DNA of 64,000 nucleotides from a virus, in IMG/VR virus record IMGVR_UViG_3300025108_004499; one strand, written 5' to 3'. Each line of letters starts with the position of its first letter. The first letter of the stretch is position 1. Under the pieces are notes generated by a model, which was not told the DNA's origin, searched no databases, and saw only the letters and a program-made list of their open reading frames with translations. Below are positions 43,355-44,789 of the stretch, piece by piece. Both the position numbers and the translations under genes were made by a program.

Positions 43355-43428
43355 TGGCATAGGTGGAGGGAATCGAACCCCCATTAACTGGTTTGGAATC
43401 AGTTGTGTTACCATTACACCACACCCAT
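43355..43428 (-). tRNA. trnW: tRNA-Trp(CCA)
   Basis: Acceptor stem ATGGGTG/CACCTAT, anticodon loop TTCCAAA, T-loop TTCGATT, encoded CCA. Confidence 0.9.
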
Positions 43429-43465
43429 AAAAAAAGCCCCTAATAAAATTAATTACTAGGGGCTT
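43429..43465 (-). terminator. Intrinsic terminator (attenuator) abutting the tRNA-Trp 5' end
   Basis: AAGCCCCTAGTAA-loop-TTATTAGGGGC followed by T7. Confidence 0.85.
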
Positions 43466-43494
43466 ACTGAAATAACTTTTTTTACAAAGTCATG

Positions 43495-43554
43495 TCAAGA
43501 CATACCCCCGGATGGTGGCCAACAAGTAATATATGTTGTATTAGTCTGTGACAT
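43495..43554 (-). CDS. 19-aa Trp-containing leader peptide MSQTNTTYITCWPPSGGMS
   Basis: AAGGA SD 8 nt upstream; lies between a perfect promoter and the terminator in front of tRNA-Trp. Confidence 0.7.
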   Translation of the reverse strand: MSQTNTTYITCWPPSGGMS

Positions 43555-43585
43555 GTTAGTATTCCTTATTTCTTATTATGTATTT

Positions 43586-43614
43586 AATATACACTCTTTA
43601 TTTTAGTTTGTCAA
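43586..43614 (-). promoter_or_regulatory. Sigma70-type promoter of the leader/tRNA-Trp unit, overlapping a TAAATA
   Basis: TTGACA-17-TATATT. Confidence 0.8.
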
Positions 43615-43771
43615 CATCTTTTTTGTCTGCTCTACCTTTTTTTCCGCAGTGTGGACAATGAAATGTTGTTCGTTCAATGCAATACTTGTCTTCCATAGTA
43701 GCGAATGTAAACCAGCCCTTACATTGAGTGCAGGTTAAATGCCATATGATTTCTTTTACCGCATTGAACAT
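43598..43771 (-). CDS. 57-aa zinc-ribbon protein (not in ORF track)
   Basis: MFNAVKEIIWHLTCTQCKGWF...FHCPHCGKKG. Confidence 0.7.
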   Translation of the reverse strand: MFNAVKEIIWHLTCTQCKGWFTFATMEDKYCIERTTFHCPHCGKKGRADKKDVDKLK

Positions 43772-44699: not shown

Positions 44700-44789
44700 T
44701 GGCGGAAGATGTAGGATTCGAACCCACGGTAGAGTCACCCCTACGACGGTTTAGTAAACCGCTCCTTTAAACCACTCAGGCAATCTTCC
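44700..44789 (-). tRNA. trnS: tRNA-Ser(ACT), class II
   Basis: GGAAGAT/ATCTTCC, GCGGT-TTACTAA-ACCGT, long variable arm GTAGGG-GTGA-CTCTAC, G73, CCA. Confidence 0.9.

Follow-up and report, generated by a model that had tools for sequence, protein, structure and literature searches.

Leader-peptide attenuation is the textbook mode of control of amino-acid biosynthesis and is known too for one synthetase operon; the pheM leader controls the pheST aminoacyl-tRNA synthetase operon of E. coli. Multivalent leaders are represented by that of ilvGMEDA with Ile, Val and Leu codons and that of thr with Thr and Ile codons. The class of leader-peptide attenuators is taken here as defined in PMC1183508, where rare control codons are linked to high sensitivity. 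Full-text literature searches have revealed no description of an attenuator of tRNA genes.

In the current analysis a module encoded on the minus strand of a DNA of 64,000 nucleotides from an uncultured marine phage (the whole stretch analysed, referred to below as the window) has been identified as a likely ribosome-mediated, that is leader-peptide, transcription attenuator gating the phage's own tRNA genes. We assign a probability of roughly 0.8 to this reading, which is based on sequence comparison in the absence of expression data and with the host, and hence its coupling of transcription to translation, unknown. Directly evident from the sequences are the anatomy of the module and its conservation, the translation-type constraints on the leader, the helices P1 and P2 and that of the terminator, the conserved distances, and the agreement of leader codons with tRNA genes.

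The features of the module are listed in Table 1. An earlier note on this DNA had placed a promoter, a Shine-Dalgarno sequence, a 19-codon ORF with one UGG, a terminator and an abutting tRNA-Trp gene at these positions, and all of them are confirmed. The 5' UTR of the leader, from the presumed start of transcription to the ATG, is ~24 nt long, and the leader folds with an energy of -44.7 kcal/mol (z = -5.5 against dinucleotide shuffles). The first base of tRNA-Trp is the base right after the T7 run, and tRNA-Trp is the sole gene of the gated unit in the window. No promoter is present between the terminator and tRNA-Trp, and tRNA-Trp can therefore be transcribed only by read-through of the terminator. 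The small hairpin P4 is possibly a pause site.

Table 1. Coordinates of the features of the leader and tRNA-Trp module in the window
Feature	Position	Strand	Remarks
Sigma-70-type promoter	43586..43614	-	-35 43614-43609, 17-nt spacer, -10 43591-43586; 11/12 consensus
Shine-Dalgarno AAGGA	43563..43567	-	8 nt 5' of ATG
Leader ORF, 19 codons + UGA	43495..43554	-	ATG 43554-43552, UGA (TGA) 43497-43495
Control codons in leader ORF	UGU 43524-43522, UGG 43521-43519	-	Single UGG in ORF
P1 5' arm, over start codon	43544..43555	-	Partner 43501-43491; compensatory changes
P1 3' arm, over stop codon	43491..43501	-	UGA to UAA coupled with UCA to UUA in 5' arm
P2 hairpin	43520..43538	-	3' arm is the Cys codon and first two bases of UGG
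Region 1, C-rich strand	43514..43519	-	Last G of UGG and two Pro codons; partner is the G run
Region 2, G run	43504..43509	-	Partner is region 1 or terminator 5' arm; proposed antiterminator strand
P4, small A/U hairpin, then U-rich stretch	43475..43490	-	80% of cells paired, little covariation
Intrinsic terminator	43429..43465	-	13-pair stem 43465-43434 and T7 run 43435-43429
Terminator arms	Region 3 (5' arm) 43465-43453; region 4 (3' arm) 43446-43434	-	
tRNA-Trp (anticodon CCA, 3' CCA encoded)	43355..43428	-	ARAGORN; Rfam 62 bits

A candidate internal promoter, composed of TTGAC in the 3' arm of P1 and a -10-like hexamer after P4, has been considered and rejected. A TAnnnT at 16-18 nt is present in 39 of 76 variants of the leader and absent in the window, the -35 element reads TTAAC in 12 variants, and a transcript starting there would contain nearly the whole terminator.

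The region upstream of the module encodes a Cys-rich ORF of 57 aa, a 50-aa ORF preceded by a glutamine riboswitch, an IscU-like gene and a block of Ser, Thr, Gln and Glu tRNA genes. On the downstream side, a second promoter, at 43334-43306, serves the gene of an ATP-dependent DNA ligase. The 57-aa ORF (43598-43771, minus strand) has two Cys pairs in a zinc-ribbon-like arrangement and its end lies inside the leader promoter, which overlaps it; the sole Pfam match, to a segment of the terminase ATPase, is below threshold. The aptamer of the glutamine riboswitch (RF01739; 43974-44022, minus strand) reaches 42.5 bits, above its gathering score of 35, and is situated directly 5' of the 50-aa ORF (43951-43799, minus strand), which is basic and has no Pfam match. 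ARAGORN also reports, at 44700-44789 of the minus strand, a tRNA-Ser with the unusual anticodon ACT (A34) that recurs in related loci, among them L003, L012 and L028. PHROGs assignments of the large neighbouring ORFs gave no taxonomic placement of the phage.

Variants of the module have been collected from 474 IMG/VR relatives of the DNA ligase and by pattern scans of viral and metagenome contigs. The first set comprises 76 distinct leader variants (alignment A1, profile search) and the enlarged set 124, all on contigs from marine viruses and metagenomes, the longest of which has 275 kb. An ORF containing Trp is found in every one of the 124 variants and its UGG is invariant. The first gene behind the terminator is tRNA-Trp in all 120 variants with enough sequence, two of which were missed by ARAGORN and identified by eye, and it is followed by varying sets of Cys, Pro, Gln, Tyr, Ser, Ile, CAU-anticodon, Gly, Arg and Glu tRNA genes. 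The earlier note had proposed aligning the regions upstream of tRNA-Trp in related phages; in such an alignment the Trp codon is invariant, the ORF is kept and the helices covary.

Of 77 variants, 71 retain the promoter pattern (TTGAC, 16-17 nt, TAnnnT). In L177, L172 and L205 the sigma-70-type promoter is replaced by a hairpin and then TATAAATA (or GATAAATA), a sequence similar to the T4 late-promoter motif, and the leader in these three may perhaps be driven at another time of infection. A few relatives have no leader and carry tRNA-Trp directly behind a plain promoter, which indicates that the module is an optional regulator and not a requirement for processing. Cultured phages gave matches through the tRNA only and none to the leader, and the conserved motif was not found in 185,579 prokaryote genomes. 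The covariance model R1 detects one copy of the module in the window, and the weak matches it gives at other loci correspond to plain terminators at the ends of genes, with no tRNA there.

Among the new evidence most weight falls on the codons at positions -3 to +2 around the UGG (those for Cys, Gln, Tyr, Ser and Gly, and AUA), which track the tRNA genes present behind the terminator. A tRNA-Cys gene is found downstream of 65 of the 97 leaders with a Cys (UGY) codon and of none of the 16 without it. For AUA and a tRNA with anticodon UAU or CAU the corresponding counts are 24/29 with the codon and 0/84 without, for CAR and tRNA-Gln 10/23 and 1/90, for UAY and tRNA-Tyr 4/11 and 0/102, for UCN and tRNA-Ser(UGA) 10/16 and 5/97, and for GGN and tRNA-Gly 2/3 and 2/110. 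The codons AUU and AUC, synonymous with AUA, show a negative link to tRNA-Ile(UAU). Altogether 273 of the 309 tRNA genes in the operons have a cognate codon at -3 to +2; the Glu, Arg and Lys tRNA genes, which mostly take distal positions, have no counterpart among the leader codons.

Since the variants are related to one another, this match has been assessed with a null that keeps both traits on the tree and scrambles only the map of amino acids to tRNAs. The true map attains S = 3.18 against 0.05 +/- 0.49, a value reached by none of 100,000 random maps. The cognate residue is ranked first of 19 for 6 of 11 tRNA types, and the signal fades at positions -8 to -4 and +3 to +8. Comparison of independent sister pairs gives 7 concordant and 0 discordant of 11 for AUA (median p 0.016), and 4.7 concordant and 0 discordant of 9 for Cys. 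The earlier note had described a sensor of Trp only, and this part of its proposal has to be given up, as the codons flanking the UGG match other tRNAs of the operons. The window itself has the control codons UGU-UGG, yet tRNA-Trp alone follows, and its Cys codon is without a tRNA-Cys behind it.

These leaders could represent an evolvable gauge of several tRNAs, in which four to six control codons are rewritten as tRNA genes are gained or lost and by which the phage switches on its own set at shortage, a proposal towards which we incline without regarding it as settled. If it is true, the phage would have an on-demand supply of tRNAs with negative feedback, which could buffer it against depletion or cleavage of the host tRNAs during infection. 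A response to a host defence nuclease, as raised in the earlier note, is purely conjectural.

A number of unusual tRNA predictions have been observed in these operons. Genes called as Met(CAT) by ARAGORN, among them those in the operons of L070, L076, L078, L205, L260, L110 and others, occur only behind leaders with AUA next to the UGG (14/29 vs 0/84) and may be AUA-reading tRNA-Ile2 of the lysidine type and not tRNA-Met. Over-long tRNA-Trp models of 85-88 nt are reported in L005, L007 and L017, and a 100-nt 'tRNA-Stop(tta)' at L037:143-242; these may reflect introns, mis-set 5' ends or a suppressor-like tRNA.

The segment between the terminator and tRNA-Trp is also variable. A structured insert of 70-95 nt occupies it in L027 (L027:3695-3787), L105, L189, L019 and ~20 other variants, with a closing stem of 10-16 bp, two or three inner hairpins and a folding energy of -21 to -26 kcal/mol. 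The inserts are of three sequence types and have no Rfam match. The 71 nt at the same place in L206 hold a mini-ORF of 15 codons with two Trp codons, led by an SD, that may be a second leader.

According to the proposed mechanism, transcription would start ~24 nt 5' of the leader ATG and a ribosome would load on the nascent leader. When charged tRNA-Trp is scarce the ribosome would wait with the UGG in its A site, and likewise at a flanking control codon, here the UGU. The waiting ribosome is predicted to cover the C-rich region 1 and to end just short of the G run located 12 nt downstream; the free G run would capture the emerging 5' arm of the terminator (2:3 pairing, that is region 2 with region 3), no terminator would form and RNA polymerase would enter tRNA-Trp. 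If decoding is fast, the ribosome would be at the stop, 11-12 nt past the start of the G run, and would sit on the run; with the G run covered the terminator would form and transcription would stop on the T run, the tRNA beginning only at the following base. The phage would probably make these tRNAs only while ribosomes read the control codons slowly. Since the stall is relieved by the very tRNA that is produced, the circuit would be a negative-feedback supply loop, the tRNA being made when its codon decodes slowly and turned off once the supply is restored. The blocking of termination by the 2:3 pairing and the response of read-through to tRNA supply are inferences.

The geometry of the leader is highly conserved. 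Of 123 variants, 116 have their last control codon 12-16 nt before the G run (the UGG of the window is at 12 nt), and 115 have the stop 11-12 nt past the start of the run. The spacer to the G run is lengthened from 12-16 nt to ~19 nt in leaders whose Trp codon is succeeded by one for Cys or Tyr.

The potential for mutually exclusive 1:2, 2:3 and 3:4 hairpins is present in all the variants; 3:4 covaries, 2:3 shows almost no covariation and 1:2 none. The G run is complementary to the 5' arm of the terminator in every variant, with duplex energies of -9 to -17 kcal/mol, and several variants extend the match to 8-9 pairs, their leader thus containing almost a duplicate of the 3' arm of the terminator. 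Duplexes of 2:3 formed with own partners are at -12.28 kcal/mol against -12.08 with swapped partners (p ~0.03, phylogeny not corrected). The earlier note had suggested the G run as an antiterminator: the pairing is possible, with a duplex energy of -11.2 kcal/mol in the window, but covariation in its favour is almost nil and antitermination is only inferred. Helix 1:2 is predicted independently by RNAalifold and has a pairing probability of 0.79 in the window and a mean of 0.77 across variants before region 3 is made. The comparison of own and swapped partners gives no sign of 1:2 co-evolution, own-partner duplexes being no better. Both the 2:3 and 1:2 pairings rest on a near-invariant G run opposite C-rich strands.

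In folding with a stretch the size of a ribosome masked, 2:3 has a probability of 0.96-0.98 for an A site placed on the UGG or one codon earlier, and of 0.04 for a ribosome placed at the stop. At equilibrium 2:3 is favoured as well in the truncated transcript without a ribosome (mean 0.85, window 0.48), and the attenuator model therefore needs 1:2 to be kinetically trapped.

The near absence of covariation in 2:3 leaves some room for a translated sensor, its codons still reporting on the cognate tRNAs, with another output. The position of the ribosome might set the processing or stability of the RNA, or release a leader small RNA acting in trans, with the tRNA supplied by constant leaky read-through. 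As no base separates the T run from the tRNA, the terminated leader and the leader processed by RNase P would be the same RNA, a hairpin with a U tail. Small RNAs derived from attenuators are also known, as exemplified by rnTrpL (PMC6614838). The fixed spacing of control codon, G run and stop is nevertheless what a switch between terminator and antiterminator requires, the complementarity of the G run to the terminator 5' arm is maintained in every variant and extended in several, and no other target of the leader is apparent. We regard this explanation as improbable in comparison with the attenuator.

The attenuator reading further requires that the leader is translated, and several signs of translation have been observed. 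Of 77 variants, 67 have an SD core (AGGA, GGAG or GAGG) 6-11 nt 5' of the start codon, the distance being 8 nt in 49, and the start codon is ATG in 64 and GTG in 12 of 76 variants. The distance from the start to the UGG is in frame in 76/76 variants with four different lengths, and that from the start to the aligned stop, for which six lengths between 51 and 66 nt occur, in 70/76; the remaining six, although out of frame, have likewise kept the Trp and end at a stop nearby. At least nine separate length changes can be recognised, seven of them in frame (p ~0.008 for a one-in-three null). The two pairs of P2 that hold the U and G of the UGG show no covariation and neighbouring pairs do covary. 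The invariance of the UGG inside otherwise covarying helices points to a constraint on the codon itself.

The amino acids following the Trp are not similarly constrained. The earlier note had interpreted WPP as a ribosome-stalling motif, an interpretation not supported by the variants, which read PP, PL, PS, CP, CT, YP and RR after W. The conserved element at the Pro-Pro site is the C-rich RNA strand that pairs with the G run and not the protein, and L203 has CGC-CGC codons opposite an altered G run. The G run is GGGG in nearly all variants (GGGC in three), and the residue encoded by it varies among G, R and W.

Compensatory changes support P1, P2 and the terminator. Considering P1, P2, P4 and the terminator together, the proportion of paired cells is 89.7%, whereas sliding the partners never brings it above 47%; double-change cells number 81 against 23.6 in shuffles. 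The pairing of the start-codon region with the stop-codon region, already suggested in the earlier note, corresponds to P1 and covaries; in 12 variants, for example, an A-U pair involving the start codon has been replaced by G-C. Both sides are changed in 3 of the 5 pairs of P2. The terminator has 95% of its cells paired and both sides changed at 5 pairs. A further helix tried, between the 5' UTR/SD and the U-rich stretch after P4, was rejected as no better than shuffled or swapped partners.

Searches of the leader against Rfam detected no amino-acid operon leader family up to E 10, including Trp_leader (RF00513), and only chance-level matches to small RNAs and leaders, below thresholds. The T-box family (RF00230), with its Stem I, specifier loop and antiterminator, likewise gave no match up to E 10.

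The covariation of P1 and P2, which together with P3 close a three-way junction with the UGG at its centre, may also be expected of an RNA that works without the ribosome and, in the manner of a riboswitch or T-box, binds tRNAs through codon-like triplets and thereby sets the terminator; a match between codons and tRNAs is in principle possible by codon-anticodon pairing alone. Such an RNA would leave unexplained the retention of SD, start, stop and frame despite insertions and deletions, the agreement of several adjacent triplets with several different tRNAs and a spacing that equals the ribosome footprint, and the Rfam searches up to E 10 revealed neither a T-box nor any other family. We consider a ribosome-free element very unlikely.

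That an ordinary small gene or the terminator of an upstream operon precedes the tRNA by chance, without any regulation, is extremely unlikely: terminators of hairpin and T run with the same GC core do end ordinary genes in unrelated contigs, but these look-alikes share the terminator alone and have no tRNA behind, whereas here the UGG is invariant, covariation is seen in helices within the ORF, leader codons change with the tRNA genes behind them and the abutment of terminator and tRNA 5' end is specific to tRNA-Trp (40/74 tRNA-Trp contexts against 0/323 for other tRNAs, in 397 distinct upstream contexts from fetched loci).

The ribosome-mediated attenuator remains the preferred reading. As put forward in the earlier note it consists of a translated leader, a sensed UGG, alternative hairpins and a terminator gating tRNA-Trp, and it is supported by the invariant UGG, the kept frame and the covarying helices. 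Further support has come from the fixed ribosome-footprint spacing and from leader codons that co-vary with the downstream tRNA genes. If the reading is true, the ribosome would test the supply of a tRNA and the answer would set the synthesis of that very tRNA, and large phages would be seen to regulate their tRNA genes and not merely to carry them. The module would provide a testable handle on the question why phages encode particular tRNAs, here those reading the rare codons of Trp and Cys and AUA, and it would represent a small natural device for sensing how fast chosen codons are decoded.

Among the known systems the T-box resembles the phage element in sensing a specific tRNA through a codon and in setting a choice between terminator and antiterminator. 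The T-box acts without the ribosome, possesses a Stem I and an antiterminator with a conserved bulge, and responds to the ratio of charged to uncharged tRNA; the phage element is devoid of these features and, unlike the T-box, carries a conserved in-frame ORF.

The closest resemblance in layout is to the trpL leader of the enterobacteria (PMC1183508). Both have a promoter-proximal short ORF with regulatory Trp codon(s) and an intrinsic terminator before the structural genes, and in both the stop is placed such that a finishing ribosome would cover region 2. The exclusive 1:2, 2:3 and 3:4 pairings of regions 1-4 in trpL have a counterpart in the phage as pairing potential, with hardly any covariation of 2:3 and none of 1:2. 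The use of rare control codons, here Trp, Cys and AUA, is a further property shared with this class (PMC1183508). The phage module differs from trpL in gating a tRNA that reads the codon and not enzymes that make the amino acid, in its single UGG as against two in trpL, in the extra helix joining start and stop, and in being phage-borne. It also has, unlike trpL, no sequence match to the Rfam leader families; it would work like these families and is not a sequence member of them.

The module would share with pheM-pheST the application of leader-peptide attenuation to a gene of the translation apparatus and not to a biosynthetic one. The product of pheST is a synthetase protein, in contrast to the phage products, which are the tRNAs themselves. 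As in ilvGMEDA and thr, several regulatory codons are found in one leader and a shortage of any of the charged tRNAs would open the operon. In the phages, unlike in ilvGMEDA and thr, the set of codons is rewritten from one phage to another in step with the gain and loss of tRNA genes, and the match of codon and tRNA extends down to synonymous codons (AUA versus AUU/AUC). The class of mechanism is known; its use on tRNA genes, with control codons that mirror them, would constitute a new regulatory logic.
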